Positions 3,083 to 20,000 of a stretch of DNA of 20,000 nt are shown one piece after another (position 1 is the stretch's first letter; every line of letters begins with the position of its first letter). Source of the stretch: an uncultured virus (IMG/VR IMGVR_UViG_3300035670_000148) (lineage: Duplodnaviria; Heunggongvirae; Uroviricota; Caudoviricetes); the IMG/VR virus record IMGVR_UViG_3300035670_000148. One strand, written 5' to 3'. Below the pieces are notes generated by a model that saw only the letters and a list, made by a program, of their open reading frames with translations, made no database searches and was not told the DNA's origin. A program made the translations under genes and the position numbers.

Positions 3083-3400
3083 TCAGTTAGCCTTTTTTCT
3101 CTGCTTATACGCATATCTATTTGCGCGCTTTCGACAAACCTCGGAGCAATGATTTTGTTTATTCGCAGCTACAGGATTATTGCAGTTTCTCTCCGCACAT
3201 ATCCTAACCTCTATTGAGGGGGGGTTCTCAATCTGTATTATCCGAGGGATAGGCTTTTCTGACCTTCCGGGGCAACCATACATATAACATTTATCTAAGG
3301 AAGCTCTCTGCTTAACAGAGAAACCCATCATGAACTTATTACAAGTCCAATAGTCTTCTCCATTCTCGTCTACAGACCATTGGACTCTACACTTTGACAT
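3083..3400 (-). CDS. Cys-rich zinc-finger-like protein (105 aa)
   Basis: Start moved to the ATG at 3400 (MSKCRVQ), which has GAGGAG upstream. C-terminal CAERNC...HCSEVCRKRANRY plus basic tail resembles CGNR-type/treble-clef zinc fingers; four more Cys in the N-terminal half. Confidence 0.65.
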   Translation of the reverse strand: MSKCRVQWSVDENGEDYWTCNKFMMGFSVKQRASLDKCYMYGCPGRSEKPIPRIIQIENPPSIEVRICAERNCNNPVAANKQNHCSEVCRKRANRYAYKQRKKAN

Positions 3401-4394
3401 GGTCTTGAGTCTCCTCAACTGCCTCCGAAACATCTACAGGAGTTTCCTCTATAGAAGTCTCCTCAGATTTCTCTACTTCTGCGGGAGCCTCAGACTCCTC
3501 TACAGGAGCTTCCTCACTCTTAATTACCTTAAGAACATCATTCATAATCATGGGGGGGACATGAATGTCGAGAACATCTTCCATTGATAAATAGATATTC
3601 TCACCCTCTAGGGAGATACCTTTACCCTCAATGTACTCTGCCTTACGCAACACTAAGTACCCATTTAACTTTGAAATACTCTCGCCCGCCATGATGACAC
3701 AAGCAGCCAAGAAAGGGTCTTGTCGAGCCTGTAATGCGTCTAGCTTTTCCTGATAGTTATCTCCAAAACTATCTCTCATCAGCCTATCAAATGTTGCTTT
3801 CATATCTTCAAGCGATGTAGGAGCTTCCTCAGTCTCGGCTTCCTCAGTCTCAGTTTTCTCTACAGGGGCGGACACCTCTGAAACAGGGTTCTCAACCTCG
3901 TCAACCTCGTCAACCTCATCAACCTCATCAACCTCATCAGACTCCTCTAGGTCTTCAGAATTATCATCATCAACTAAGAAGAAAGAGAAGGCATTTATTT
4001 GAATCGTATATCCCTTAATCTCAGGGTTCCAAAGCTCTGTGAGATAGTCTTTGACAAGAGGTAGTGAGGCGCGCGGAACCCAAGTTAAAGGTTCAGATAC
4101 TTGTAGGTTTCCTTTAAGAACTACGCCTCTAACACCTACTGAGAAGCAAGTATCTGCACCCATTTTCTCTATAAAATCTCTAGTTTGTTCAAGTGCCCCA
4201 TTCTTTTTAAAGAAATAATTTACGCCACTCTCTAGGTATTTCATAGAAACCTCAACCATATTGTCAAGGATAGACTTCATAGCATGGTTTCTAAGTGAGG
4301 GTGCAGTCTTCTTCTTATTTTTTAACTTTAAAGCACGAGCCGCTTTACGCTTTGCCATCTTAATTGTGTGCTTCTTATTCGCAGTCTTTTTCAT
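3387..4394 (-). CDS. Hypothetical protein with basic N-terminus and acidic low-complexity linkers (335 aa)
   Basis: ATG at 4394 (MKKTANKK) has GGAG 7 nt upstream and is preferred over the TTG at 4406. K/R-rich first 35 aa; D/E-rich middle and tail. Confidence 0.8.
   Translation of the reverse strand: MKKTANKKHTIKMAKRKAARALKLKNKKKTAPSLRNHAMKSILDNMVEVSMKYLESGVNYFFKKNGALEQTRDFIEKMGADTCFSVGVRGVVLKGNLQVSEPLTWVPRASLPLVKDYLTELWNPEIKGYTIQINAFSFFLVDDDNSEDLEESDEVDEVDEVDEVDEVENPVSEVSAPVEKTETEEAETEEAPTSLEDMKATFDRLMRDSFGDNYQEKLDALQARQDPFLAACVIMAGESISKLNGYLVLRKAEYIEGKGISLEGENIYLSMEDVLDIHVPPMIMNDVLKVIKSEEAPVEESEAPAEVEKSEETSIEETPVDVSEAVEETQDHVKV
3892..3939 (-). repeat. 9-bp tandem repeat x5 encoding (DEV)5
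   Basis: TCAACCTCG x2 then TCAACCTCA x3 on the plus strand, in frame in the 3387-4394 ORF. Confidence 0.95.
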
Positions 4395-4462
4395 TCTATT
4401 CTCCAAATGAGTGTGTGCCTAGACGCGAGTGTTATACCGAAATAACGCCGAGAGAAATCTTG

Positions 4463-4716: not shown

Positions 4717-4978
4717 TGCTTTGATTTTATTGATTTTTATTGGGGGTTCTATTGGACTTCTTACCCATCATGCTGAGAGCGAGATAGAGATTGTTATTTG
4801 CAAAGGTTCTGAAGCACCTTTTCTGTTTATAGGTGAGAAAAGAGACTACAAGTACTTACTAAATCAGGGTATTTTGACTGAGCTTACTGTGTGTCAGACA
4901 AAAAAGATGACTCACGATACTTGGTATCAGACGCGAAGTGCGCTCAACCGCTCTTTTTTGAATACTAGGGAGAAATAA
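4706..4978 (+). CDS. Small protein with N-terminal signal/TM segment (90 aa)
   Basis: SD AGGAG; hydrophobic ALILLIFIGGSIGLL; two Cys in the soluble part. Confidence 0.7.
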   Translation: MMSNALILLIFIGGSIGLLTHHAESEIEIVICKGSEAPFLFIGEKRDYKYLLNQGILTELTVCQTKKMTHDTWYQTRSALNRSFLNTREK

Positions 4979-6173
4979 TCTCTTCTAGTTTAGATTCAAC
5001 TTCGGGTGTGTATTTACTATGCTGATTTGAGAGTTCGGCTAACTCGTCAATCTCGTCTTTCTTAGAAAGACCGAGCATATGAAGAAGACTACGAACAGGT
5101 CCAGACTTCATTACTCCATTTGCGATTTGCTTAAGAACCCACCAAACGCCTTGAAGAGGCATAAGCAAAAGAACTTTTGGAGGGATAGCTAAGAGCTTAC
5201 CCCCTGCTTGATAAACTTGAGAGACTAATAACCAAACCACGAGAACTGCACCTAAACCGATAACAATCACATTGTGAGGGATATTATCGTATATTGCTTG
5301 ACATAAGAACTTAAACGCACTATAAATGTTGTCTAGTGCCCCACCTAAGACAAATGCTAGTCCTTTCCCTAAGTTCTTAAGTAAAAACCATAGAGCTTCA
5401 AGAGCGGATTCTACTGCACTTGGAACTTCTGGAAGGAGTTTCCCAATCCACCCTGTTATAACACCACCTACCCAAGCCATCGCATCGCTTCCTAAGATAG
5501 TCTTAATAAGACCCCAAGCAGCTGGTCCAATCCATTCAATAATATTTGTCCAAACCCACCCTACACCATCTAGAATCATAGTTGAAACGGCAGGTATCGC
5601 GGTCTTTTTTAGAGAAGCCGTTTTGAATTTCTTAGGGTCTGCCATCAGTATATAAACCACTTTAGGGTCTACACCTAAGAGTTGTGCGATTTTATCTGGG
5701 TCCTTTTGATTAGCCCCGATTTTCCCAACAATCTCAGATTGTTGGGCGAAGGATAATCCGGATAAGCGATTGTCTAATAACTTATCAAAAGGATTTTTTT
5801 CGGTGTTTTTGGCTAATTTTTCTACTACTTTCATATAATCTAAGGTGTTTTTAATCCCCATCTGTTTATGTATCAGAGAGAAACCTTTAACAGCTTCTCC
5901 AGATAAAGGGGGTAGCTTTGCCACCTCATCTTGAACAACCGCAGTCACGACTGCTTCTTTAAGTTGTTCTGAAGATGCCGTTCTTATGGTGTCTCTAGGG
6001 TAAGAGCTACGAACAATTTGTGAGGCGACTCGCACTTCGTGCGCGCTAAGATATCTCCCTCGAATCAAACTCATCCTCATTTTATCGTAGTCAAGTGGGG
6101 TTCTTGGAATCGCCACATTTAGACCTCTCTGTGAGAGGTATGCACACCTAGTCTGAATATCTGCCAAACTCAT
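4965..6173 (-). CDS. Membrane protein, single-unit member of paralogue family A (402 aa)
   Basis: SD AAGGAG. Helical domain (QMGIKNTLDY...KNPFDKLL...KIAQLLGVDP) similar to those in 6237, 8341 and 12432, followed by KTAS/KKTA and a long Trp/Gly-rich hydrophobic region. Confidence 0.8.
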   Translation of the reverse strand: MSLADIQTRCAYLSQRGLNVAIPRTPLDYDKMRMSLIRGRYLSAHEVRVASQIVRSSYPRDTIRTASSEQLKEAVVTAVVQDEVAKLPPLSGEAVKGFSLIHKQMGIKNTLDYMKVVEKLAKNTEKNPFDKLLDNRLSGLSFAQQSEIVGKIGANQKDPDKIAQLLGVDPKVVYILMADPKKFKTASLKKTAIPAVSTMILDGVGWVWTNIIEWIGPAAWGLIKTILGSDAMAWVGGVITGWIGKLLPEVPSAVESALEALWFLLKNLGKGLAFVLGGALDNIYSAFKFLCQAIYDNIPHNVIVIGLGAVLVVWLLVSQVYQAGGKLLAIPPKVLLLMPLQGVWWVLKQIANGVMKSGPVRSLLHMLGLSKKDEIDELAELSNQHSKYTPEVESKLEEIISP

Positions 6174-6250
6174 AACGGGCTCCTTTTTTTTCTTTAATAC
6201 TTTTGTTCTCTCATTAAAGAAAAAAAGGAGCCCGTTATGAGTTTGGCAGA
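6160..6250. repeat. Near-perfect inverted repeat (39/38-bp arms, 14-bp spacer) spanning the RBS and first codons of two divergent genes
   Basis: 6160-6198 TCTGCCAAACTCATAACGGGCTCC(T8)CTTTAAT is the reverse complement of 6213-6250 ATTAAAG(A7)GGAGCCCGTTATGAGTTTGGCAGA except for one base in the homopolymer. Confidence 0.97.
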
Positions 6251-8339
6251 GCTAGAGAAAGTCTCTAAAAGCACCGCAGAGGAAAATCAAAAAAGCCTCA
6301 TACAGATGATAAAAGATGCAGTTAGAAGTACTTCTTTGAGTACTTCTCAGATCAACTTAATAAAAGATACAGCTACTGAAGTGGGGATTGTTAACTTTAC
6401 AGATATTCTTAAGATGAAAGGACCAGCTCCCAAGAATAATCTAGAGAAATTCATGATGTTGAAAATGCAAGGTATCTCAGACCCTGCGACAGTCGCTCGC
6501 ATGATAACTGAAATACTTGCAGCTCAAGACCAAGAACAGCTGGCTGCGGCACTAGAAGTCCCGTCTGCAAAGTTGCAGGCACTACTACCCGGACCAACGA
6601 TAAAAGAAATTCTGACTAGCCTCACAAAGAAGTTCTTAGTCACTTTCTTTATCTCCTTCATCACTTCTTTCCTTTTTAAGTTCTTTCAAGCATCCTCCGC
6701 CTCTAAGATTTTAGAGTTTTGCACGAATGCTAAAACAGCTTCGGGGAAGAAATTTAAGGTCAGAGTTGCGTGGGACGCTGACTATGCGGTGGATACCCAC
6801 ACTGCGCCAATGATGGCAAAGAAAGTTGAAAAAGTTATACAGGAACGAGTCATTAAAGATATTCAAATACAGCAACAGGCAGACGCAATGAACATCTATT
6901 CGGGGGATAAAGTACTAGAAGTTCCCTCAAACCAAATTGAGTATAACGCCAGCACAGGGGAATATAAAATGTGGGTCTATAACGACCCCGCTAAGAATGT
7001 CCCTGCTGAAATAACAGAGGTGGGTGGCGTGGTGAACGCAAAGCCAACTTCCGCACGTTACCTTAACATCGGTGAGGTTGAGGGTAAGGTAGTTACAGAC
7101 AAAGAATCGGGTAGGCACATTTGGCAGCCCAAAGAGGGTGATACGGTGCGTATGTTTAAGAACGAGGATGGTAAATGGGTTCGTTTTAAGGATTTAAGCG
7201 AAGAAGAGCAAGCTAGATTAGGAGATCGGGATTACGACCCCTCACAGGCGGGTGTTGCTCTACATAAGAAGATATTATGTGGAACTATCAATTGGGCTAC
7301 ATATAGCTTCTTAGGGAGTATTTCTAAGTTCTTCGTAACTGTTGCGAAAGGGTTCGTAGCTGAATTGGGGAAAACAAGCGTACTTTACGGATTCTTAGCT
7401 TCAGCCGCAACTGCGATACTCTTATTCGGATCAAGCATAGTTAAAGGTATTTTCAAGGTCTTTTCTTTTGGGAAGGACTTGGTAGTAAATGGAGTTAAAG
7501 CACTTTGGAACTTAGCCACAAAAAGAGGTAAGTCAGCTTCAATCCCAAGAAGGAAACTTGCTCTAGAGGAAGCCGTAAACCCCAAAGAGGTGATTGACGA
7601 GACTTCCAACACAATTATGGGTGTCGTGGGAGAAAAAGTCAAAGAGGTTCAGAAATTCTTAGGTTCTAGTTCGCTCACAGCCATGAGAGACTTGGCAGCT
7701 AAAGCAGGTATGTCTTCTTTCAAAGAGTTGTCTAAAGGAGAAGAACCCGTACCCACAAACCCTCTAGAGAAATTGATTGTTGAAAAGCTCAAGAGAATAT
7801 CCTCTGCGAAAGAGAAGATATTATTTCTAGAGGGTATTCATAAGGCTTCCTCTAAGGAGGAACTTAGTAGTGTCTTAGAGATAGACCCTGCAAAGTTAGA
7901 GTCTTTTTTCGGAGATGAGACAAAGACAATAAAAAGGACTATCGTTATCTCACTAGGTATTATAAGCATAGCCTTCTTGTTGGGTGCGTTTATCCATGTG
8001 GTAATGACGACACCGATTTTAACAGGTGCTTGGTTAACTCTAAAATCTTCTTTGATGCCTTTAGTGAACTTCTTACCTGTCGCTACAAACATGACGGCGA
8101 CAGAGTTTTATAAGATGTTGGCTATTGGGGCGGCTAAGTCTGCCTTAATACAGACTACGATTATCGGAATTGTTATGTATGGCCCATCGTGGATAAGAAA
8201 GAGCTTATCCGCAATAGGTTCTTGGGTGAAACAATCTATTATTGGTATATGGGACAAAATAAAAGCACCTTTTAGAGAGGCTTCTCAAATATCTCCTGAA
8301 AGAGCTTTACTCAACATACTTAGTTACAGAGGAGTCTAA
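6237..8339 (+). CDS. Membrane protein, two-unit member of family A with a 185-aa insert (700 aa)
   Basis: SD AAGGAG. Two helical-domain copies (PKNNLEK...QEQLAAALEVP and PTNPLEK...KEELSSVLEIDP), each followed by hydrophobic segments. Its only two Cys (162, 348) flank the insert. Confidence 0.85.
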   Translation: MSLAELEKVSKSTAEENQKSLIQMIKDAVRSTSLSTSQINLIKDTATEVGIVNFTDILKMKGPAPKNNLEKFMMLKMQGISDPATVARMITEILAAQDQEQLAAALEVPSAKLQALLPGPTIKEILTSLTKKFLVTFFISFITSFLFKFFQASSASKILEFCTNAKTASGKKFKVRVAWDADYAVDTHTAPMMAKKVEKVIQERVIKDIQIQQQADAMNIYSGDKVLEVPSNQIEYNASTGEYKMWVYNDPAKNVPAEITEVGGVVNAKPTSARYLNIGEVEGKVVTDKESGRHIWQPKEGDTVRMFKNEDGKWVRFKDLSEEEQARLGDRDYDPSQAGVALHKKILCGTINWATYSFLGSISKFFVTVAKGFVAELGKTSVLYGFLASAATAILLFGSSIVKGIFKVFSFGKDLVVNGVKALWNLATKRGKSASIPRRKLALEEAVNPKEVIDETSNTIMGVVGEKVKEVQKFLGSSSLTAMRDLAAKAGMSSFKELSKGEEPVPTNPLEKLIVEKLKRISSAKEKILFLEGIHKASSKEELSSVLEIDPAKLESFFGDETKTIKRTIVISLGIISIAFLLGAFIHVVMTTPILTGAWLTLKSSLMPLVNFLPVATNMTATEFYKMLAIGAAKSALIQTTIIGIVMYGPSWIRKSLSAIGSWVKQSIIGIWDKIKAPFREASQISPERALLNILSYRGV

Positions 8340-8340
8340 A

Positions 8341-11300
8341 ATGGAAGAGACTGATTTAAAGTCAACTGTGGATAGTTCATTGGCCGCTAACCAAAAGTCT
8401 TTGATTCAATCAATCAAAGACGCGGTGCGCGACACCTCTCTTAATGACTCTCAGTTAGCTGCAATTAGAGATATGGCAGCTAAAGTCGGTATTAAGTCAT
8501 TTAAGGATGTAGTCTCTGCAAATAAAATACCTCCTAAGACTAAACTTGAAAAGTATATGCTCTTACAGATGGAGAAGTTAGGGACACCTGCCAAGATTGC
8601 AACTTTCATAAATGATGTGGTGAGTTCTAAGACACAAGAAGAACTAGCAAAAGCCCTAGATTTACCTCCTGAGGATTTGGAAAAAATCCTACCGACTCCA
8701 ACCATCTCAGAAATATTTACGAGTCTTTTCAAGAAGTTCCTCGTGACCTTCTTTATTTCTTTCTGTTTCTCGTTCATGTATCAGTTTGTGAGTAAGCTAG
8801 AGCTAGTTAAAAAGGCAATGGAAGGGTGTCATAAATTTGTGAAGTTTGGTTCTCAACACAAGATTAAGATGGCGAGAATCGCTCGGCTTATAAAAAAAGC
8901 TGAGGGCTTTACTAGTCCAGAAAGACCTCGTATAAATTTCACAAAAGTACCCAAAGCACAAATGCTAGATATGCAAGTTTCTGAGAACCCTGCTCTTTTA
9001 GACAGAGACACAATTAGGGAAATAAATGTAAGATTGCAGGACTCTAGCAAGTCACTTTCATTGACTGCTGTAGCGGTAGATGAACGAGTACAATTCCTTG
9101 ATAATGAGGTCTCATTTGCGCGTGATCGGTTGTTAAATGTTGCCAAAAACTCACCCGATGCGTTGCCCTTAGCTAGAGAAGAGTTTAACTCGCTTTTATC
9201 TAAGGTTGAACAGGCTAAAGAGGTACAAAAGAAAATACAAGAAACTCGTGAATTGCTTGAGGCGGCTTCTACTCCAAGAGTTACCCCTGATTTAAATCAA
9301 CTAAGAGTTGAATTAGTGAATGGCGATTTGGCGGACAGGTTGAACCAGATTAATGCGAGTACGAAATATCTAGATAGAATAACTCAGCAAGCTCAAGTTG
9401 ACAGCTTCCATATTCAGGTATCTGACCAAAACATAGGCGGAACAGTAAGCTACGAGGGTCTAAGTGACTCTATGAAGAGAAAGGTAGAACTTAAAATAGA
9501 AACTGCTCTAATAGAGGCACAGAAATCCCAGAAAGATCTACTTGAAGTCAGAGATAAAATCCAAAATTACCAACAACAATTACTAGAACAAATACAAAGC
9601 CGCAATCAAGCGGGTATTTCTAGCACTACGGGTACTCAAGAATATGTGAAGGTTGTTAAAGAGCTTCAGGAAGCTCAAGCAGCTGTAGATAAGAGCACAC
9701 AGCAACTAGAAATATTGCAAGAGGCTTCAAGGAGACCTAGTCTCAAAATTTACAACGACATAAATGAACGTCTTTTGAGAGAAATACAAGACAACAAGCA
9801 AGTCGGAGGTAGTGTAGGTCTTACAGTAGAACAAGATTTTGAAACGGCTCAGAGAGCTATTGACCCTACGGATACAGAGAGAGGTTGGAAATTCGTAGAC
9901 AGGAGTGAGCAGAAAAGATGGCTGAAAGATATTTATGACCAACAGGATACTTTGGAGGATGCAAGAAAAACAATAGAAAAGAGTATTGCGCGCGCAGATA
10001 AGCAACTCGCAGAGCTTGAGAAAATGAAGAACGCTCCGAATGTGCATCCCGCAGATGCTAAGAGTGTAGACGAACTGATAAACCAAACAAGAGAAAAACA
10101 GAGGGTAATGACGGAGACATTAGGGGATATTCAAGAACAAGAAGGATACTATCGGCAGTTGGCAACCAAACCTTCTATTGCGGGTGTGCGTGACCATGTA
10201 AAAGATTTCCAGCAAGTTATACAGGAGACAAATCAAGAGCTTCAGAGTTTTAATGCCGAAAGACCGCTTGAAAAGGCTAGAGAGATTATTCATTCAGCTA
10301 TCGGTAGACGAAATGCGGAGATATTTCAGCAAATCCTTCAAGAAGATGTCAAAAGACATAATTGGCTTAATGAACTAAAGACGAAAGACCCTACTCTATA
10401 TGCAGAGGCACTCGGCTTAGAGGATAGCTATATATTAGCTTTTGACCAAGCACAGAAAATAATTGGTGACGACCCTAAGGTTTGGGCACTCGTGTTTGAG
10501 CAACACCCTGAATTAGACCCCCTACAATATAGTATTAGAGAAAACTTCGGTACAGGTACGCCTGAAATAAATATCAATGAGTTGAGTGAGCTATATCAGG
10601 ATGCACAAGAACAAGTATATGACGGAGAAATTCCGACAATTAAGAATGTAAAGAAGGTCGAAGACCAGATGACAGAGGTAAAAGATAAGGCATCTTACAA
10701 TATTTTGTGCGGAGCTGCACAATGGGCAGGCTTTAGCTTTTTGAAAACATTTACAACCTTTATTACCGGACTCGCGGGTGGACTCATTAAAGAATATATA
10801 TTACAAGGGGCGCTTCCCGCGTTCATCACAGCCTGCGCGGTATCTGTCATTATTGTGGGCAAAGGGATTATTTCTAGCATATTTGGTTTTATCACGAAGG
10901 GGGTTGGTTTTGTGAAGAATATGGTGTCTAGCTTATGGCAAAAGATTTTAGGTAAGCGTAAAAAGTTAGCCTCATCAAAAGCACTCCTTAAGCAAGCCAA
11001 AGCTAGAAATAAATATGCGGCGGCGGCGATTCCGATGGAACAAATTTCCTCTGAGGAGGACGTCTTAAAAGTGACTGAGAACGCGGTGCAGGAAGGGGTA
11101 AAAGCAAGTGCCTCAGAGTTATCAAAATTCTTGGGGCAAAGGTCAATATCCTCACTTAGAGAGCTTGCCTCCGAAGCGGGGTCTAAGGTGTTTATTCAAA
11201 TCTCTCAGAAACAAGATGTAGTAGATCCGAGAACTCCGCTAGAAGACTTGATTAAGAAACGAGTTGAGAGATTATCTGGGGGGGCGCGTCTTCAGTTTCT

Positions 11301-11844
11301 TTCGGACATCTCAAATGCTTCTTCAGAAGAAGAGATGATGGGACTCTTAGAAATAAAAGAGGCGGATAAAGACCTTTATTTCAAGGGAGTCTCAACAAGA
11401 GGGCAGAAGCTGTGGAAATTTGCATTAATCTTGAGCGTCACTTTCTTATTGAGTCTTTTCATATACGCAATAGTGGCTTCGGGAGCGTGGGCTACAGCTT
11501 CAGCTTCATTTATGAAGACCATGGCTCCAATAGCGGAGACAATGCACTCTGTATTAGGGTATGCGAGTGCAAAAGAGTTCTATACGGATTTAGCATTAAA
11601 CGCAGCGAAAAGCGCCCTTATTTCCACGACCATCTTAGGGGTTATTATGTATGGTCCTTCATGGATAAGGAAGTCAGTAGGTGCTATTAGTACTTGGGTA
11701 AGTGGACATATCTCTAAGATATGGAGTGTAATCAAGAAGGGTTTGAGTTATCTGAACCCTTTGAGTTACATGAAGAAGGCGAGTTCATATACGGCATCAC
11801 AAAAGTTAGTCGTCATAATGAGACAGCCTATTTGGGTCAGATAA
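8341..11844 (+). CDS. Membrane protein, two-unit member of family A with a 626-aa coiled-coil-rich insert (1167 aa)
   Basis: SD GAGGAG. Shares NQKSLIQxIKDAVR, KKFLVTFFISF, ILCG and AAKSALIxTTIxGxxMYGPSWIRKS with the 6237 ORF. Q/E/K/L-rich insert between Cys163 and Cys790. Confidence 0.85.
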   Translation: MEETDLKSTVDSSLAANQKSLIQSIKDAVRDTSLNDSQLAAIRDMAAKVGIKSFKDVVSANKIPPKTKLEKYMLLQMEKLGTPAKIATFINDVVSSKTQEELAKALDLPPEDLEKILPTPTISEIFTSLFKKFLVTFFISFCFSFMYQFVSKLELVKKAMEGCHKFVKFGSQHKIKMARIARLIKKAEGFTSPERPRINFTKVPKAQMLDMQVSENPALLDRDTIREINVRLQDSSKSLSLTAVAVDERVQFLDNEVSFARDRLLNVAKNSPDALPLAREEFNSLLSKVEQAKEVQKKIQETRELLEAASTPRVTPDLNQLRVELVNGDLADRLNQINASTKYLDRITQQAQVDSFHIQVSDQNIGGTVSYEGLSDSMKRKVELKIETALIEAQKSQKDLLEVRDKIQNYQQQLLEQIQSRNQAGISSTTGTQEYVKVVKELQEAQAAVDKSTQQLEILQEASRRPSLKIYNDINERLLREIQDNKQVGGSVGLTVEQDFETAQRAIDPTDTERGWKFVDRSEQKRWLKDIYDQQDTLEDARKTIEKSIARADKQLAELEKMKNAPNVHPADAKSVDELINQTREKQRVMTETLGDIQEQEGYYRQLATKPSIAGVRDHVKDFQQVIQETNQELQSFNAERPLEKAREIIHSAIGRRNAEIFQQILQEDVKRHNWLNELKTKDPTLYAEALGLEDSYILAFDQAQKIIGDDPKVWALVFEQHPELDPLQYSIRENFGTGTPEININELSELYQDAQEQVYDGEIPTIKNVKKVEDQMTEVKDKASYNILCGAAQWAGFSFLKTFTTFITGLAGGLIKEYILQGALPAFITACAVSVIIVGKGIISSIFGFITKGVGFVKNMVSSLWQKILGKRKKLASSKALLKQAKARNKYAAAAIPMEQISSEEDVLKVTENAVQEGVKASASELSKFLGQRSISSLRELASEAGSKVFIQISQKQDVVDPRTPLEDLIKKRVERLSGGARLQFLSDISNASSEEEMMGLLEIKEADKDLYFKGVSTRGQKLWKFALILSVTFLLSLFIYAIVASGAWATASASFMKTMAPIAETMHSVLGYASAKEFYTDLALNAAKSALISTTILGVIMYGPSWIRKSVGAISTWVSGHISKIWSVIKKGLSYLNPLSYMKKASSYTASQKLVVIMRQPIWVR

Positions 11845-11882
11845 TACTTTTATAACAGACTCCATAAGAAATAAGGAGTCTG
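11841..11882 (+). promoter_or_regulatory. Candidate late-promoter motif followed by an RBS-sequestering hairpin
   Basis: ATAATACTTTTATA at 11841-11854. CAGACTCC (11856-11863) pairs perfectly with GGAGTCTG (11875-11882), which contains the SD. Confidence 0.55.
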
Positions 11883-11885
11883 ATT

Positions 11886-12407
11886 ATGAATCAAAGACTA
11901 GCAAGAGAAGCCATCAGACGAGTGGCGAGTATAGACTTCCAGCACGTAGCCCAAGCCATCGAATATTCGTTACAAACGAAAGCGCCAAAATCTGCGACCT
12001 CTCAAGACATCAAGCAGATGTACACAGCATTCTCTCGTAGAGACCCTAGAAAGACTGATTATTATCCGAACACGGTGGTTGGGTATGAAACGAAGGCTAC
12101 TTATTCGTTAGATGTTTTAGAAATGGCTAGGTTTGATGATGTGCTTTTATCGCAGTTAGTCTCGTTAAAAGATTCAGATACCTCCAAGTTATCTGAGGCA
12201 TTAACAGCCCAAGCCAATAAAAATACTTGGCCCTATATCAGAAGAATGAGTTCCCTTGTCTTTACTTATCACGAGCCTAACGAGTTTTTTGTGAAGTTTG
12301 AGGTTCAGAAAATAGACACAAGTAAAGGTCGGTTGGTTTTAGATGTGGTACTAAAAGTAGCCCCTAAAAACCCACCTTTATATAGAGCGTACAAACCGGG
12401 TAGATGA
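11886..12407 (+). CDS. Hypothetical protein, paralogue family B (173 aa)
   Basis: SD AAGGAG; N-terminal RRVAS; aligns by eye with the 16035 and 16499 ORFs. Confidence 0.8.
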   Translation: MNQRLAREAIRRVASIDFQHVAQAIEYSLQTKAPKSATSQDIKQMYTAFSRRDPRKTDYYPNTVVGYETKATYSLDVLEMARFDDVLLSQLVSLKDSDTSKLSEALTAQANKNTWPYIRRMSSLVFTYHEPNEFFVKFEVQKIDTSKGRLVLDVVLKVAPKNPPLYRAYKPGR

Positions 12408-12431
12408 CTCAGAAAGCAGAGGGAGTTAGAT

Positions 12432-13958
12432 ATGAATATTATTCCTGTTTTATCTGCCAAAGTAAAAGCGGTGCTACCTCAGAAAGTCAAAGAGACAGTC
12501 GATCAAGGGCTTCTATATGCCAAAGTAGCTCCTGAGGACTTGAAGTTGATTAGAAATCTTATGGTTTCTGTTGGGGTAAAATCGTCTAAACAATTATTCA
12601 GTATGAATCCACCTAAACCTTCTAATAACTTAGAAGAGTTTTTGTATCTAAAAGCGTCGCATATGAAAAAGCCTAGCGACCTGACTAGTTTTATTTCAAA
12701 AGTATCCGTTGCACAAACTCAAGAAGAGCTTGCGATAGCCCTCGAAATCCCGCCTGAAAAAGTACATACTTTAATTCCGGACAGGGACTTTAAGGATATT
12801 GCCAAGGCTTCTCTAAAGTTATTTAGTGCGAAGACACTTGTCACGATATTAAATAATATTATGTACTATGGGTTCTTCCAAAACCTAGCATTTGTTAAAA
12901 TGCTTTTGGGGGAAATAATAGATGTAGGTGGTTTTATTGGGGGTTTGATTCAAAAGATTATTTTTTCAATCAAGAACACTATTGTATATACATTTATGAC
13001 ATTCATCCCTATGGGTGTCAGACTGATAGGGTCTAAAGTTGTAGACCCTATCTTGGGATTACTCACGAAGTTAACAACAAGTGCGCTTCTTTTAGGTAAG
13101 TCCGCTAAAGATGAGGGCATCAGTTTGGCAAAAAATATAGCGGAACAAACTGCGGAGGAACTCCCAAATCTAGTAAAAACAAATAAAATAGGTAGCGTTA
13201 TTCCAGACAAAGAGAATATTTCGGATGGTTTCTTGTCGGGGATTGTGACAGCGATCCAAACAAAAGCGAAACAGATTAGCAACTATTTCACAAAGTACGA
13301 GATTAGTACGCTTCAAAGAATGGCAGGCGAGGCAGGCTTGGTTTCTCTGAATCACTTTATTGACGCGGAGCAGACTGCCCCCTCAAATGAACTAGAGAAG
13401 CGGATTTATAAGATAATCTCTACATTAGAGCCAAAAGACCAGATTGAGCTTGTGACTTGTTTGTATGAAGCACAGAGTGAAGAAGAAATCGCGACCCTCT
13501 TGAAAATTGAACCCCATAATATTCCTTATTTTTTTCCAAATCGAGGTCGAAAAACGCTAAAGATAGCAGGGTATATTTCAATCGCATTTCTTGTAGGAAT
13601 AGCTCTCGCCTCGATGACCTCTCTATTAGGGGGGGTATCCGCTTTGAGCGCCGCGCTAACGAGTTTAACCGCGCCCCTAGTAAGTCATCTAGGCGCATTT
13701 ACCGGTGGTGTTGCAGTAGGTGTGTTCCTCAAAACTATGATTGCGAAAGGTGTCCTTTCTGGAGTAATCGGGACATCTATTAAGATGTTCTTATTTCAAG
13801 GACCAAGACAAGTAAAATATCTAGTAATGCACCTTAAGGAGTGGGTGGTTGGCGAGATAAAACAGATTTGGTCAAAGTTCAAGGGTTTCTTTAAGAAGAA
13901 GACCGCGCGCAGAATCACTTTTGGAGAGATGTTATTTGAGACATTTTCTTATATGTGA
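12432..13958 (+). CDS. Membrane protein, two-unit member of family A without insert (508 aa)
   Basis: SD GAGGGAG. Two helical-domain copies (PSNNLEE...TQEELAIALEIPP and PSNELEK...SEEEIATLLKIEP), each followed by hydrophobic segments. C-terminal GPRQVK...WVVGEIKQIW matches GPSWIRK...WV...IW. Confidence 0.85.
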   Translation: MNIIPVLSAKVKAVLPQKVKETVDQGLLYAKVAPEDLKLIRNLMVSVGVKSSKQLFSMNPPKPSNNLEEFLYLKASHMKKPSDLTSFISKVSVAQTQEELAIALEIPPEKVHTLIPDRDFKDIAKASLKLFSAKTLVTILNNIMYYGFFQNLAFVKMLLGEIIDVGGFIGGLIQKIIFSIKNTIVYTFMTFIPMGVRLIGSKVVDPILGLLTKLTTSALLLGKSAKDEGISLAKNIAEQTAEELPNLVKTNKIGSVIPDKENISDGFLSGIVTAIQTKAKQISNYFTKYEISTLQRMAGEAGLVSLNHFIDAEQTAPSNELEKRIYKIISTLEPKDQIELVTCLYEAQSEEEIATLLKIEPHNIPYFFPNRGRKTLKIAGYISIAFLVGIALASMTSLLGGVSALSAALTSLTAPLVSHLGAFTGGVAVGVFLKTMIAKGVLSGVIGTSIKMFLFQGPRQVKYLVMHLKEWVVGEIKQIWSKFKGFFKKKTARRITFGEMLFETFSYM

Positions 13959-14007: not shown

Positions 14008-14691
14008 ATGACTCGATTAGTGTGCATTTCAGATACCCATGAGCGGCACAGAGAAATGAGTCTACCCGATGGGGATATACTTATTCATGCAGGCGATTGG
14101 ACATATACAGGCGAACCTAAAGCTGTTCTAGATTTCTTAGATTGGTTTTCAAGCCAGCCCCACAAACACAAAGTATTTATTGCGGGAAACCACGAAGTGA
14201 CTCTAGACTCCTCAATGGAGGAAATGTATATCGCTCGTAGATTTGGTCTGATTGGAGACTTCTCTCGTTTGAGAGAAATAATATCAAAACCTATTTCGGG
14301 AGTCCACTATCTGTTAGATAGAGAAGTGGTGTTGGAAGGGCTGAGAATATATGGTTCTCCTTGGCAACCTGCATTTGGAGGTTGGGGCTTTAATAGACAA
14401 AGGGGAAAGGATATTTCTCGTGTTTGGAGAGACATCCCTACGGGGGTAGATATTTTAGTCACTCATGGTCCAGCTTATGGGTGTCTTGATAAGTTGGAGA
14501 CTTTTGAGCGGGTAGGGTGTTCAGACTTACTTCAAGAGATAGAGGATAGGATAAAGCCAAGAGTTCATATATTTGGGCACATTCATTGTTCATATGGGGT
14601 TTTAGAGAACAATGGAGTGACTTATATAAATGCTTCCTCTTGTGGAGAAGACTATCAGATAAGGAACGCCCCCATAGTGTATGATATTTAA
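14008..14691 (+). CDS. Calcineurin-like metallophosphoesterase (MPPED1/239FB-like)
   Basis: All five metal-binding motifs in order: SDTH, HAGD, GNHE, THGP, FGHIH; also YGSPWQP and INAS. Confidence 0.95.
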   Translation: MTRLVCISDTHERHREMSLPDGDILIHAGDWTYTGEPKAVLDFLDWFSSQPHKHKVFIAGNHEVTLDSSMEEMYIARRFGLIGDFSRLREIISKPISGVHYLLDREVVLEGLRIYGSPWQPAFGGWGFNRQRGKDISRVWRDIPTGVDILVTHGPAYGCLDKLETFERVGCSDLLQEIEDRIKPRVHIFGHIHCSYGVLENNGVTYINASSCGEDYQIRNAPIVYDI

Positions 14692-16034: not shown

Positions 16035-16502
16035 ATGTTCCGACAAATAACGATTAAAACAGCAACCGCGATTGCTAAAGCTATACAAAAGACTCTTCCT
16101 TTTAAGGAAAGAGTAGACGAGATTGAAGAAGATGTTAAGGTCACTCGTCGAGGCGGGTCTTTTTTAAGTTTGCGCGTAGTCGGAGTGCGTAAGCTAGAGA
16201 CTCATAAAATCCCCTTACTTGATATTGCACAAGAGGATATGGAAATATTAGGGGAGTTGGGGTCATTAATAGATGACGACGACACCTCTTATTTCTTATC
16301 TGGAATACTAACATCACTTGAGCCAAAAGATGTAGGGTTCAAGAAATATGTCAGCTCGTATGTTCAAAAGCATACTGAGCCAGAGATGTTCATTTGTGAG
16401 AGAAGGGTAGTTTGTTTCCGACAAGAAAAAGGTTTCTTAATAATGATGACTGAATATCTTATCAGACCCCGTACTAAGATTCTTTCTTTCAAGGAGAGAT
16501 GA
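16035..16502 (+). CDS. Hypothetical protein, paralogue family B (155 aa)
   Basis: N-terminal IKTA. LLDIAQEDMEILGELGSL...DTS and EPEMF...KGFL match the 11886 ORF. Confidence 0.75.
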   Translation: MFRQITIKTATAIAKAIQKTLPFKERVDEIEEDVKVTRRGGSFLSLRVVGVRKLETHKIPLLDIAQEDMEILGELGSLIDDDDTSYFLSGILTSLEPKDVGFKKYVSSYVQKHTEPEMFICERRVVCFRQEKGFLIMMTEYLIRPRTKILSFKER

Positions 16503-17008
16503 TGATGAAAAGACAAATAATAAGAAATCTGTTGAAGACAGCCTCTTTAGATATTGAAAATCTTGCTGAGATAATACACAAGCAGATTGAGATTACACCT
16601 TCTATTCAAGAAGAAAAAGAGGAAGTCCTGACCAACTTTGTTTTAGAGAGTAACATGGGGAGGTCTCTCAAAAGAGATGTTCCTTTTGGGCATAAACTTA
16701 TAGTGACCAAAAAGCTAGATGTTTTAAGTATGGCAGGTTCAAACAATAAGATTCTCATGCAGTTATTGACTATCAGTACTCAAAATTATTTTAAGTTGGG
16801 TACGCAAATAGAAAAAATCTTTAATGGAGATGAAATACAAGAATATGTAGACCTTTTGGTGGATGATTTCTACAGAAGGAAAACAAGTGTAGAGGATTAC
16901 GAGATAAAGTTTGAAATAATAGAAATAGATAATACAAGAGGTTCTTTTAAAATCAAATACGCTATATCTCTAGCGCCTATAAACAACTTGCTCACAATAT
17001 ATGTGTGA
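16499..17008 (+). CDS. Hypothetical protein, paralogue family B (169 aa; start may be the second or third ATG)
   Basis: SD AAGGAG; ATGA overlap with the previous gene. LKTASLD, LDVLSMA and KFEIIEIDNTRG...LAP match the 11886 ORF. Confidence 0.8.
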   Translation: MMMKRQIIRNLLKTASLDIENLAEIIHKQIEITPSIQEEKEEVLTNFVLESNMGRSLKRDVPFGHKLIVTKKLDVLSMAGSNNKILMQLLTISTQNYFKLGTQIEKIFNGDEIQEYVDLLVDDFYRRKTSVEDYEIKFEIIEIDNTRGSFKIKYAISLAPINNLLTIYV

Positions 17009-17011
17009 TGT

Positions 17012-18826
17012 ATGTGGGACGCCGTAATTCTTAGAGATGGTGCTAATCCATCTTTTTATGCAGAAGTAGAACTTCTCTTAAGAAGAGCGGGTCTCAATAA
17101 TATTGCGTTAATTCATTGGGACAGACCAATCCCCTCTTGTAAAGTATTACTTGGTCACGCTAGAGGGCTTTCTCGATTCTTTGAGGTAGCTAGAACTAGA
17201 CTTATTTCACTAGGTGGTCGAACACCGGTGATAACAGAAGAGATTTTGGATGACCTCTTTATGTTAGACCCTTTTGGGTATAGACAAGCTGCTAAGAAAA
17301 CCATTAAAAACAAGGTTCGAGAGAACGCCAAGAAAAAGCAGTCTCCTAAGAAGCTGACTCCTCCTGCTCAGAAAAAACCAACACCTACCGAAAAGATAAA
17401 AGCGCGGAACACAAAGCCTTCAAAGAAAGAGGCTCCTAAACAAGAGGCTCCTAAACAAGAGGCTCCTAAACAAGAGGCTCCTAAACAAGAACCTGCAAAC
17501 AAAGAAAACAACCCTCTTTCTAAAAAGCCTATCTACACATTAATAGAAGAAAAGTACGCTAAAAGGTGGAGAGGAGAAAACCCTCTGAGTGGCAAATCCG
17601 TCGGCTTTTGGACAGTTAAAGGTTGGCTACACTCTAAAGATAAAGACTTAAAGAAATATGCGGAGTCTGTTTTCAAAGGCTTTAAGGATAGCGTAAAAGA
17701 GGACCAAAAAGAAGGAGTCTTAAAAGAAGTAATGCTCCCCGACATTATAGACAATGGTGTATTTCCTGTAGAGCTGATAAAACAGCAGACTTTAAGTTTT
17801 AACATAGACATAGAAAAGCCAATAAGCAATCAAAGTTTTGATTACTTAACCGAAAACATAAGACGTTCATTCAGAACTCAGGGTTATAATAGAAACTTCG
17901 TAGAGCAGTATGTAGATAAAAAAATAGAAGGTTATAAATCAATAATTAAACTTTTCACCAAGCCTATTATGTCCTTATTCTCTAAGCAGAAAAAAGATAG
18001 GGAGCTTGAGAGATTTGGAGATTTAGCCGAGGTTTTTGATGAAGCTCAGAATACAAATAAAGCCTTAAAACTAGCGTCTAGTTCTTTTGCTGTGGAATTC
18101 GCAATGGATACAATTATCCCAAAGTTAGGAGAATTGACTAACTCTAGTATAATTACAGACTTTTTTACGGTTGATGGATTAGGTGCTGTTGTTACTAAGG
18201 GAATCGTTGCAAAGTTTCCCGTAGCCGCAAAAGTAGCCGCACTCACAATACCTAAAGCAATACCCTTTATTGGTGGTTCTCCGATAGTTGCGGGAATCGT
18301 AACAATAGGTGTCGGCATGGTTGTTGGAAGTATTATTTCAAAAATGCTCACTAATAAAGTTCAATCCGATGAATATGATGAAATAACGGTAGATGTTTTT
18401 AGAGGTGAACTCACTCCCGAAGATATGGAAAAAACATTCAACAAGAGATTAGACGCTATTCTTAAAAAGAACATACCTAGAGAACAAATGCAAAAAGAAA
18501 TGCAAGCACTCTATGACGAGTTTCAAACAGAAGTCAGACCCGCAATCGAGAAAGCTCTTTATATGGCGGGTAAGAATGTAGGCAAAGGGTCAGAGGGGGG
18601 TTCTTTTGATATGTTTAAGTTCTTAAAAACAGGTTCAGACAGCTCTAAACCTAAAGCAGTTGTACGAATGAGAAGAGTCCTAGAATCAATCAGAATTGAA
18701 AAGCTCATAGAAAGAGCTTTAATCACAAAAGGCTTTAATGAAACCTTGACAAAAGTCCTGCGCGGTGATTTACCTATGAATCCCGAATTTCTAAAATCAC
18801 TTCACTCATATTTACCAAAGGGTTGA
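17012..18826 (+). CDS. Multidomain hypothetical protein with K/P-rich linker and a hydrophobic segment (604 aa)
   Basis: Long ORF without a clear SD. N-terminal VLLGHARG; (EAPKQ)4 linker; hydrophobic IPFIGGSPIVAGIVTIGVGMVVGSII. Confidence 0.8.
   Translation: MWDAVILRDGANPSFYAEVELLLRRAGLNNIALIHWDRPIPSCKVLLGHARGLSRFFEVARTRLISLGGRTPVITEEILDDLFMLDPFGYRQAAKKTIKNKVRENAKKKQSPKKLTPPAQKKPTPTEKIKARNTKPSKKEAPKQEAPKQEAPKQEAPKQEPANKENNPLSKKPIYTLIEEKYAKRWRGENPLSGKSVGFWTVKGWLHSKDKDLKKYAESVFKGFKDSVKEDQKEGVLKEVMLPDIIDNGVFPVELIKQQTLSFNIDIEKPISNQSFDYLTENIRRSFRTQGYNRNFVEQYVDKKIEGYKSIIKLFTKPIMSLFSKQKKDRELERFGDLAEVFDEAQNTNKALKLASSSFAVEFAMDTIIPKLGELTNSSIITDFFTVDGLGAVVTKGIVAKFPVAAKVAALTIPKAIPFIGGSPIVAGIVTIGVGMVVGSIISKMLTNKVQSDEYDEITVDVFRGELTPEDMEKTFNKRLDAILKKNIPREQMQKEMQALYDEFQTEVRPAIEKALYMAGKNVGKGSEGGSFDMFKFLKTGSDSSKPKAVVRMRRVLESIRIEKLIERALITKGFNETLTKVLRGDLPMNPEFLKSLHSYLPKG
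17429..17488 (+). repeat. 15-bp perfect tandem repeat x4 encoding (EAPKQ)4
   Basis: GAGGCTCCTAAACAA x4, in frame. Confidence 0.97.
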
Positions 18827-19310: not shown

Positions 19311-19512
19311 AAAGTCATTACTCTATGAAGCAGACTCATTCATCGTTGAATATCTAGAGGGTGCTGTTATTCTCACCTCTAAGGAAGGCTTAGAAATAAG
19401 GCTCAACTCAGGGAGCTGGCATATCATATCTAGTAAGATACAAGCCTTAGAAAACGCCAGAACTAATCCCGCTAAAGAATTTACAATGTACCCCATGTTT
19501 GAGGATGACTGA
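19300..19512 (+). CDS. Hypothetical protein (70 aa)
   Basis: Overlaps the previous gene by 11 nt; no motif. Confidence 0.55.
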   Translation: MKIEKSLLYEADSFIVEYLEGAVILTSKEGLEIRLNSGSWHIISSKIQALENARTNPAKEFTMYPMFEDD

Positions 19513-20000
19513 TTCTCTTACGCCTACGATGAGATGAAGTCTTAATCTGGTTTGGCAAGACTGCGCGCAAAAGCTGGCGGACTTTTGGATGTACCGTCTT
19601 TGGTCCATATGTGATAAGCATACCTAGAGCCTCGCAGAACGCTTCTTCGGGGTTCGCCTTAGCGTAGCCTGTAATCGGGGGCATCATAACCTTAACTTTT
19701 CTTGGTATTTCCTTGCTCTTATAAGCTCTGAACACATCATTTATAGAATAAATCTCGTTGTCTTGGTAGTCCTCGTCAAAAGTTAGCCCCTCTAGCTGAA
19801 GGTATGTGATGGGGTCTTTTTCTTTCAGAGTGTCCTCATCTTGGCGCATAGTGACCCATGTCATGTAGGCATTCTGTAAATCAAGTGTGATATAGCTACC
19901 CTCTATGACGCTCACCCAAAAGTCCTTTGCGTCTTTTCTCAGAATATTATTCCATATGTGGTGTCCCTGCTCGTGGGCCATCGTATGAATGGCATCTTTC
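19481..20000 (-). CDS. Zinc metallopeptidase-like protein, C-terminal part (5'-truncated)
   Basis: Frame stays open to the window edge (KDAIHTM-AHEQGHHIW). HExxH motif plus downstream GYAKANPEEAFCE, matching the Y-x3-N-x2-E-x-F-x-E pattern of anthrax-lethal-factor-like zincins. Confidence 0.75.
   Translation of the reverse strand, partial: KDAIHTMAHEQGHHIWNNILRKDAKDFWVSVIEGSYITLDLQNAYMTWVTMRQDEDTLKEKDPITYLQLEGLTFDEDYQDNEIYSINDVFRAYKSKEIPRKVKVMMPPITGYAKANPEEAFCEALGMLITYGPKTVHPKVRQLLRAVLPNQIKTSSHRRRKRISHPQTWGTL

Follow-up and report, generated by a model that had tools for sequence, protein, structure and literature searches.

The coding run and its insertion slot

The 20,000-nucleotide (nt) stretch of DNA from the uncultured virus IMGVR_UViG_3300035670_000148, referred to in full as the window, carries on its plus strand a run of genes that opens with two large open reading frames (ORFs), paralogue A (P0001) and paralogue B (P0002), and continues with a 173-amino-acid (aa) ORF (11886-12407), a third large ORF, paralogue C (P0003), and a calcineurin-type phosphoesterase (14008-14691). 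The start of B lies 2 nt past the stop codon of A. From their alignments, A, B and C are recognized as tandem paralogues of one very rare, undescribed family, in which a conserved scaffold is interrupted at a fixed point, between two invariant cysteines, by segments that are unrelated to one another. The coordinates of the features discussed below are collected in Table 1.

Table 1. Positions of the genes, inserts, cysteine codons, variable blocks and repeated domains in the window
Feature	Position	Strand	Basis or comment
Paralogue A, 700 aa, type-A insert	6237..8339	+	ORF; AGGAG 8 nt upstream
Paralogue B, 1167 aa, type-B insert	8341..11844	+	ORF; orthologue P0012
Paralogue C, 508 aa, no insert, no Cys before residue 343	12432..13958	+	ORF, BLASTP, hhalign
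Repeated helical domain of A, copy 1, residues 20-125	6294..6611	+	BLASTP high-scoring segment pair, alignment, hhalign; pLDDT 61-78
First hydrophobic helix of A, residues 131-153 (KKFLVTFFISF...)	6627..6695	+	Kyte-Doolittle 19-residue mean 1.73; conserved with B
Cys162 codon of A, last invariant N-flank residue	6720..6722	+	sequence, alignment columns
Type-A insert, 185 aa, Cys-free, conserved core between variable blocks	6723..7277	+	flank/insert comparison
Replaced or diverged block, A insert	6773-6890		contigs of relative (X5, X7)
Replaced or diverged block, A insert	7075-7229		contig bridge only in X5; X7 has loose ends at both edges
Cys348 codon of A, first invariant C-flank residue	7278..7280	+	sequence, alignment columns
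Repeated helical domain of A, copy 2, residues 455-562	7599..7922	+	BLASTP high-scoring segment pair, alignment, hhalign; pLDDT 74-83
Cys163 codon of B	8827..8829	+	sequence
Type-B insert, 626 aa, Cys-free, helix-favouring composition	8830..10707	+	flank/insert comparison
Replaced or diverged block, B insert	8903-9417		contigs of relative
Replaced or diverged block, B insert	9894-10324		contigs of relative
Cys790 codon of B	10708..10710	+	sequence
Replaced or diverged block, C	13504-13576		contigs of relative
Hydrophobic protein, 402 aa, divergent from A, candidate distant fourth family member	4965..6173	-	hhalign to family repeat domain: E 5e-4, probability only 31%
Palindrome over divergent starts	6160..6250	.	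31-nt arms 6160-6190 / 6220-6250, 100% complementary; inner 14-nt pair

The architecture is seen most directly when A and B are compared with BLASTP. The two proteins align over residues 1-181 (82/181 = 45% identity, expectation value (E) 2e-40), and the alignment restarts at the motif 'ILCG', from which residues 346-697 of A match residues 788-1143 of B (132/374 = 35%, E 4e-57). Paralogue C aligns with A at both ends (E 1e-20 and 1e-16), and the middle of A is absent from it. Paralogue A contains exactly two cysteines, C162 and C348; B contains C142, C163, C790 and C832; and C contains a single one, C343. An initial annotation of this DNA had described flanks that diverge between the cysteine pair and rejoin at ILCG, unrelated and Cys-free inserts, just two cysteines in the 700-aa protein, and a third paralogue lacking both the insert and the bracketing cysteines. 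BLASTP and the cysteine positions agree with this description at every point.

The family members recovered from metagenomes extend the picture. They fall into an A type (P0001, P0005, P0006 and P0007), a B type (P0002, P0012 and the fragment P0014), a C type with no insert (P0003, P0008, P0009 and P0010) and a D type (P0011, P0013 and P0031), whose insert, not previously noted, is acidic (22% D+E) and is 225-259 aa long in P0011 and P0013, the members in which it was measured. The interruption always falls at the same point, ranges from 142 to 626 aa, and is of three kinds, all within one clade of the family. Pairwise hhalign comparisons of the A, B and D inserts gave homology probabilities of 0.3, 0.1 and 0.2% (0.3% for A versus B), and the best BLASTP match between the A and B inserts had an E of 1.6. 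The earlier proposal of a conserved scaffold with an exchangeable segment is thus upheld, now with three mutually unrelated insert types. Profiles of the inserts found nothing below E 0.01 in the PDB or Pfam.

In two of the types, A and B, the insert looks like a folded module and not a mere spacer. The A insert has a core at about residues 218-285 (PxNQIE...GVVNxKP...VEGK) that is kept across orthologues only 44% identical (the orthologues of A share 87% and 44% identity with it), and the B insert and that of its orthologue are similar in length (626 versus 604 aa) with 30% identity. The D-type inserts share 31-38% identity with many gaps. As to the kind of fold, the initial annotation had called the A insert beta-rich and the B insert coiled-coil, of which the first is borne out weakly and the second in part. 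The AlphaFold model of A gives the insert one helix followed by six short strands, but at a predicted local distance difference test (pLDDT) score of 25-60, which supports a beta-rich fold weakly. The B insert favours helix, and a heptad pattern occupies 7% of its 28-residue windows compared with 1% in shuffled sequences, a level reached by 0/200 shuffles; in its orthologue, however, the pattern occupies 1% of windows, a level reached by 23/200 shuffles.

The cysteine bracket

Both cysteines, designated here Cys1 and Cys2, are present in 9/9 full-length insert-bearing proteins (the four A-type, P0002 and P0012 of the B type, and the three D-type). Two fragments, P0014 and L003, reach the second site only, and both keep its cysteine. 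Conversely, none of the four no-insert representatives has a cysteine within its first 340 residues, so that the pair follows the presence of an insert. Two observations that the initial annotation had named as refuting, insert-bearing homologues without the pair and homology between the two inserts, are thus not seen. In an alignment of the nine insert-bearing proteins, invariant ungapped columns make up 23/170 (13.5%) of the N flank and 28/353 (7.9%) of the C flank; Cys1 is the last such column before the insert and Cys2 is the first after it. In addition, cysteine is scarce in the family (23/8151 residues, 0.28%) compared with the other ORFs of the window (36/4143, 0.87%), every insert is free of it, and at the 0.87% background a Cys-free segment of 626 aa has a probability of P = 0.004. 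By the column counts, the cysteine bracket is not a chance pattern. A stronger argument than co-variation with the insert is that the pair has stayed constant while the sequence between was replaced at least twice.

A third cysteine, at position 142 (nt 8764 in B), precedes Cys1 by about 20 residues and is part of the first hydrophobic helix, in the context SFCFSF or SFCVSF. It is found in both B-type representatives and in two of the four A-type proteins (P0006 and P0007), and it is absent from P0001, P0005 and the three D-type proteins.

Block-wise divergence of the inserts

Closely related pairs of proteins differ chiefly in the insert. For P0001 and P0005, the two flanks are 96 and 96% identical and the inserts 62%; for P0006 and P0007, the corresponding values are 99 and 99% and 69%, with 17 gapped columns in the insert. 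In more distant pairs the same trend is seen, with flank identities of 67/53% versus 30% for the insert in one case and of 63/60% versus 38% in another. The divergence can be resolved at the nucleotide level because two public sequencing runs from two studies, X5 and X7, contain contigs of a relative that matches the window at about 96% in the flanks, where 537 nt contain 23 differences and 1675 nt contain 61. Against this background the contigs bridge five sharply localised blocks that have been replaced or have diverged (Table 1). Four of the five (1211/1282 nt) fall within the two inserts, which represent 32% of the stretch compared, and the insert pieces that can still be aligned are 85-92% identical, more diverged than the flanks. 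The sole block outside the inserts lies in C at about residues 358-381, at the junction of the second helical domain and its hydrophobic helix.

Within 6237-13958, no direct repeats were found that bracket the inserts or pair with the variable blocks. The blocks therefore point to replacement in the course of evolution rather than to a programmed cassette. A diversity-generating retroelement (DGR) target was considered and rejected, as there is no template/variable repeat pair in 6237-13958 and no reverse transcriptase family among the 21 ORFs of the window. In phage-host conflict, hypervariability confined to sharp blocks is usually the mark of a molecular interface. If the membrane-scaffold reading given below is right, the family is therefore a candidate for some step of infection, be it membrane entry, exclusion or the remodelling of the envelope.

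Internal duplication and predicted structure

The scaffold itself is built by duplication. The two copies of a helical domain in A align with one another (BLASTP internal high-scoring segment pair, E 3e-10; 12-sequence domain alignment), and hhalign matches the N flank to the second half of the no-insert group with 98% probability (E 1.4e-13). Since that match takes in the downstream hydrophobic helix, the unit present in two copies comprises the helical domain together with the hydrophobic helices. Each protein is thus a duplicated unit, in which a helical domain of about 85 aa is followed by hydrophobic or amphipathic helices over about 100 aa, and the insert breaks up the hydrophobic part of unit 1 just past its first helix. 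By Kyte-Doolittle analysis, the hydrophobic segments of unit 1 are moderate (1.3-1.7) and those of unit 2 strong (up to 2.6).

An AlphaFold model of A, built from a 13-sequence alignment, has a mean pLDDT of 45, with only the two helical domains at 70-83. A fold search with the whole model returned long-helix noise only (best Z 9.3 over 66 residues), and one with a domain-only model (pLDDT 63) gave a best Z of 4.8, with no helix-turn-helix protein above that value. Membership of the repeat domain in the sigma-70 region 4 or helix-turn-helix families was rejected, the matches being below the curated threshold: Sigma70_r4_2 was matched at E 0.014 by 1/12 domain copies and Sigma70_r3 by 2/12, and TIGR02937 scored 14.9 bits against a cut-off of 42.9.

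Rarity and distribution of the family

Used as the phmmer query in an exhaustive search of 1.84 billion cluster representatives, C retrieved 10 proteins at E <= 0.001. Word-indexed searching of 5.8 billion clusters brought one further member, and a search with the family alignment brought none. The gene order A-B-C recurs in five metagenome loci (L001-L005), all of them without the 173-aa ORF that here separates B from C; in L002, C begins 50 nt past the end of B. The initial annotation had recognized no described family here, and the database searches concur: P0001-P0003 match no Pfam family (E <= 0.01) and no PHROG; matches in NCBIfam are sub-threshold only; and against PDB sequences P0002 has no match below E 0.1 and the domain profile gives sub-threshold matches only. 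Neither DNA nor protein matches to the A-B-C region, P0001, P0003 or ORF 17012 were found in the GenBank phage collection, and no relative appeared among the IMG/VR viral contigs scanned or in a pattern scan of 185,579 GTDB species genomes. In the ESM Atlas the best score for P0003 was 0.79, and a 930-aa ORF of locus L001 gave nothing usable. A full-text literature search yielded analogies only and no published description of the family. The family, its internal duplication and its invariant cysteine bracket are thus new; the principle of a variable domain in a conserved scaffold, and that of hypervariability localised within a phage protein, are already known.

In P0009 (L004, 1726-3798), the insert-free C paralogue from a related phage, about 170 aa are appended at the C terminus; they include six cysteines (C-x4-C-x10-C-x5-C plus two) and have no Pfam match. 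The family therefore takes add-on modules at a second position as well.

Evidence for a probable phage origin

Shine-Dalgarno motifs precede most ORFs of the window, indicating bacterial translation. The window opens with a partial ORF (1-1764) of 587 aa, which matches no known family and whose L001 counterpart has 930 aa. Over 98% of its length it is 35% identical to the C-terminal end of an ORF of 1832 aa from LR745208.1, a 485-kb record of an 'uncultured phage'. In that record the 1832-aa ORF is followed by a holin-like gene and preceded, about 2 kb upstream, by an ORF of 1685 aa that includes an endolysin-like stretch. LR745208.1 was rejected as a relative carrying the family; it has no copy of the repeat domain, and no other gene of the window occurs within 20 kb on either side of the 1832-aa ORF. 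The phosphoesterase at 14008-14691 has 88 matches in phage records. The remaining neighbours (an acidic repeat protein, an eight-Cys protein and, in L001, a GcrA/Myb-type protein), like the phosphoesterase, look like early or regulatory genes. On this evidence, and on the absence of relatives from the species genomes scanned, the element that carries the family is probably a phage, most probably a tailed one infecting bacteria of aquatic or subsurface habitats.

A possible role for the bracketed insert

These observations suggest a reading that we favour tentatively, putting its chances a little short of even: the family would be an undescribed, probably phage-encoded, membrane-active scaffold that presents a Cys-stapled, fast-evolving interaction module. 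In this scheme, the hydrophobic helices on the two sides of the slot would pack together and either anchor the protein in a membrane or admit it to one. The insert would jut from the neck so formed as an exposed interaction module. At this neck, the two invariant cysteines would sit next to each other and hold it closed, most likely through an intramolecular disulfide. The insert would evolve fast as blocks are replaced, a host or rival partner being the probable source of pressure.

Several findings weigh against this scheme. In eight of the nine insert-bearing proteins, the 25 residues after Cys1 include 4-8 lysines or arginines. (The initial annotation had seen a K/R-x-A motif at the start of each insert; this is not a conserved site, and a basic stretch describes the region better.) By the positive-inside rule, such a stretch fits a cytoplasmic, non-oxidising face, where no disulfide would form in the producing cell; the charge distribution, like the topology, is nevertheless ambiguous. 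Membrane spanning is itself uncertain, because the first hydrophobic helices reach only the moderate hydropathy given above. The model of A falls below pLDDT 50 at residues 120-194, 210-285 and 330-476, and thus around both cysteines; being unreliable over the hydrophobic regions and the insert, it leaves the packing of the flanking helices and the proximity of the cysteines to be inferred. For the part of C that corresponds to the slot, MAFFT and BLASTP give conflicting placements, and A 348-439 and C 156-249 stay unaligned in hhalign. In a maximum-likelihood tree of the flanks, of the form C | (D, (B, A)), a single branch, with support of 100/100, parts the no-insert from the insert-bearing proteins; the contrast between insert plus cysteine pair and neither is accordingly one event and not a repeated co-variation, and the two could share one origin and have been inherited with no functional link. 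Finally, no capsid, portal, terminase or tail family was found among the 21 ORFs of the window (Pfam and PHROGs), which covers 20 kb of a contig of up to 73 kb, or among 10 ORFs of L001 and L004 (Pfam).

The charge next to Cys1 is the starting point for the alternative that survives best, unlikely as we judge it, namely that the cysteines make no intramolecular disulfide and that they instead bind a metal, join subunits through a disulfide or form a redox switch with the third cysteine, with the insert in the cytoplasm. Besides the basic stretch, which suggests a cytoplasmic face, this alternative could draw on Cys142, present in the B-type and half of the A-type proteins, and on the six-Cys extension of P0009, which would mean that Cys-based sites recur in the family. 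Two cysteines alone, however, are a poor metal site, there is no conserved adjacent histidine or extra cysteine, and Cys142 is missing from the remaining A-type proteins, that of the window included, and from every D-type one.

The single split in the tree bears in turn on a different and rather improbable explanation, in which the inserts are weakly constrained, partly disordered spacers, free to drift and recombine, and the cysteine pair is an inherited feature unrelated to them. The acidic, gap-rich and divergent D-type inserts are what such an explanation would lead one to expect, as is the fact that no insert matches a family or a solved structure. It accounts poorly for the position of the two cysteines as the innermost invariant residues on both sides and for their persistence through at least two replacements of the sequence between them, and it is also at odds with the PxNQIE, GVVNxKP and VEGK motifs kept in the A core and with the length and 30% identity kept in the B insert.

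The remaining alternative, close to that of the initial annotation, is very doubtful: that the proteins travel in the virion and leave it by ejection, that a protease cuts the loop, and that the disulfide holds the chains until reduction in the host, whereupon the insert is released or activated as cargo. The bracket and the exchangeable insert on which it builds are real, the basic stretch after Cys1 would fit, and large genes in tandem that encode hydrophobic helices call to mind the ejection proteins of podophages, whose genes are consecutive. Beyond this it has analogy behind it, in the A4 disulfide and the crAss001 helix described below; but no sign of a protease site or of nicking was found, no column after Cys1 is invariant across the insert types, the K/R-x-A pattern is not conserved, no paralogue has a lytic domain (Pfam, PHROGs), the neighbours look early or regulatory, and since nothing in the window or the related loci marks a virion module, delivery of virion-ejected proteins stays a guess.

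A bolder version of the scaffold proposal, itself improbable at present, would make these proteins a previously unseen class of phage scaffold, in which a disulfide-stapled, swappable module tips a hydrophobic hairpin inserted in the membrane. The paralogues of one operon would differ in their module, blocks would be replaced between close strains as the module meets a host or rival-phage partner, and the whole would act as a modular phage-host interface; such a system could include virion delivery, and the first-helix cysteine could give a redox-triggered change.

If the favoured scheme of a Cys-stapled module on a membrane-active scaffold is true, an unannotated family has a fixed docking point, marked by two invariant cysteines, at which domains are inserted and quickly replaced, and domain grafting could make use of the slot as a natural site. 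For now the finding is descriptive: the family is tiny, is known from metagenomes only and offers no functional handle.

Comparison with known systems

Bacterial histidine kinases and chemoreceptors have a conserved scaffold with an unrelated, exchangeable sensor domain between two hydrophobic helices. The present family resembles them in having an exchangeable domain between the hydrophobic helices of a conserved scaffold; it differs in that P0001-P0003 contain no HAMP, HisKA, HATPase or MCP domain (0 Pfam families at E <= 0.01), and to our knowledge a cysteine bracket is not a feature of histidine kinase or chemoreceptor sensors. Phage tail fibres and DGR targets are mosaic, fast-evolving host-interaction proteins, and they share with this family sharp hypervariable blocks in otherwise near-identical genes of close relatives. 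Here, however, there is no tail-fibre family match (Pfam, PHROGs), no repeat pair and no reverse transcriptase, and length changes occur among the blocks. A loop bracketed by a cysteine pair (invariant in the 9/9 proteins here) is also the mark of disulfide-linked nicked toxins and viral fusion proteins, but no recognisable protease site, no evidence of export or cleavage and no similarity to any of them is found in this family.

The podophage ejection proteins (for example T7 gp14-gp16 and A4 gp26-gp29; PMC12002296) are encoded by consecutive large genes, mostly helical and supplied with hydrophobic segments, as here, and they are thought to end in host membranes. In the pre-ejectosome of cyanopodophage A4, a disulfide between Cys1715 of the ejection protein gp27 and Cys5 of gp26 is reported (PMC12002296), and the cargo protein gp45 of crAss001 has a predicted transmembrane helix (PMC10172136). 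Unlike the podophage proteins, the members of the present family are mutual paralogues, internally duplicated and devoid of a lytic domain; they show no sequence or fold match to ejection proteins (the best A4 pre-ejectosome chain had a Z of 4.2, within noise), and no virion genes were detected beside them.

Other features of the window

The 402-aa hydrophobic protein encoded divergently from A has an orthologue in L001 (42% identity) and has its leader and first codons in common with A. Both genes start AGGAGCCCGTT-ATG-AGT-TTG-GCA (M-S-L-A) because of the shared 31-nt inverted repeat, and the palindrome covers the ribosome-binding sites and first five codons of the two. In L001 the same gene pair is separated by a different, perfect 17-nt palindrome (8610-8650), which stops short of both starts.

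The 173-aa ORF at 11886-12407 belongs to a small set of mutual paralogues with the ORFs at 16035-16502 and 16499-17008 (155 and 169 aa; BLASTP E 5e-9 and 5e-8), and none of the three matches a family. The adjoining 604-aa ORF (17012-18826) has an (EAPKQ)x4 repeat and a Gly/Ala-rich hydrophobic stretch at residues ~400-470; it is a hydrophobic orphan with no detectable relationship to the A-B-C family (hhalign probability 0.1%). A T4-lysozyme-like match in it (E 0.05) was rejected, as it overlies the Gly/Ala-rich stretch and has no Pfam or PHROG support. On the minus strand, the eight-Cys protein (116 aa, 3083-3433) has a zinc-finger-like spacing, and its ORF overlaps the start of that of the very acidic 339-aa protein (3387-4406), which contains a (DEV)n repeat, and no family matches either of the two. 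A 166-aa ORF on the same strand (19481-19981), which has no Pfam match, starts with H-E-x-x-H (HEQGH), the signature of zinc metalloproteases.

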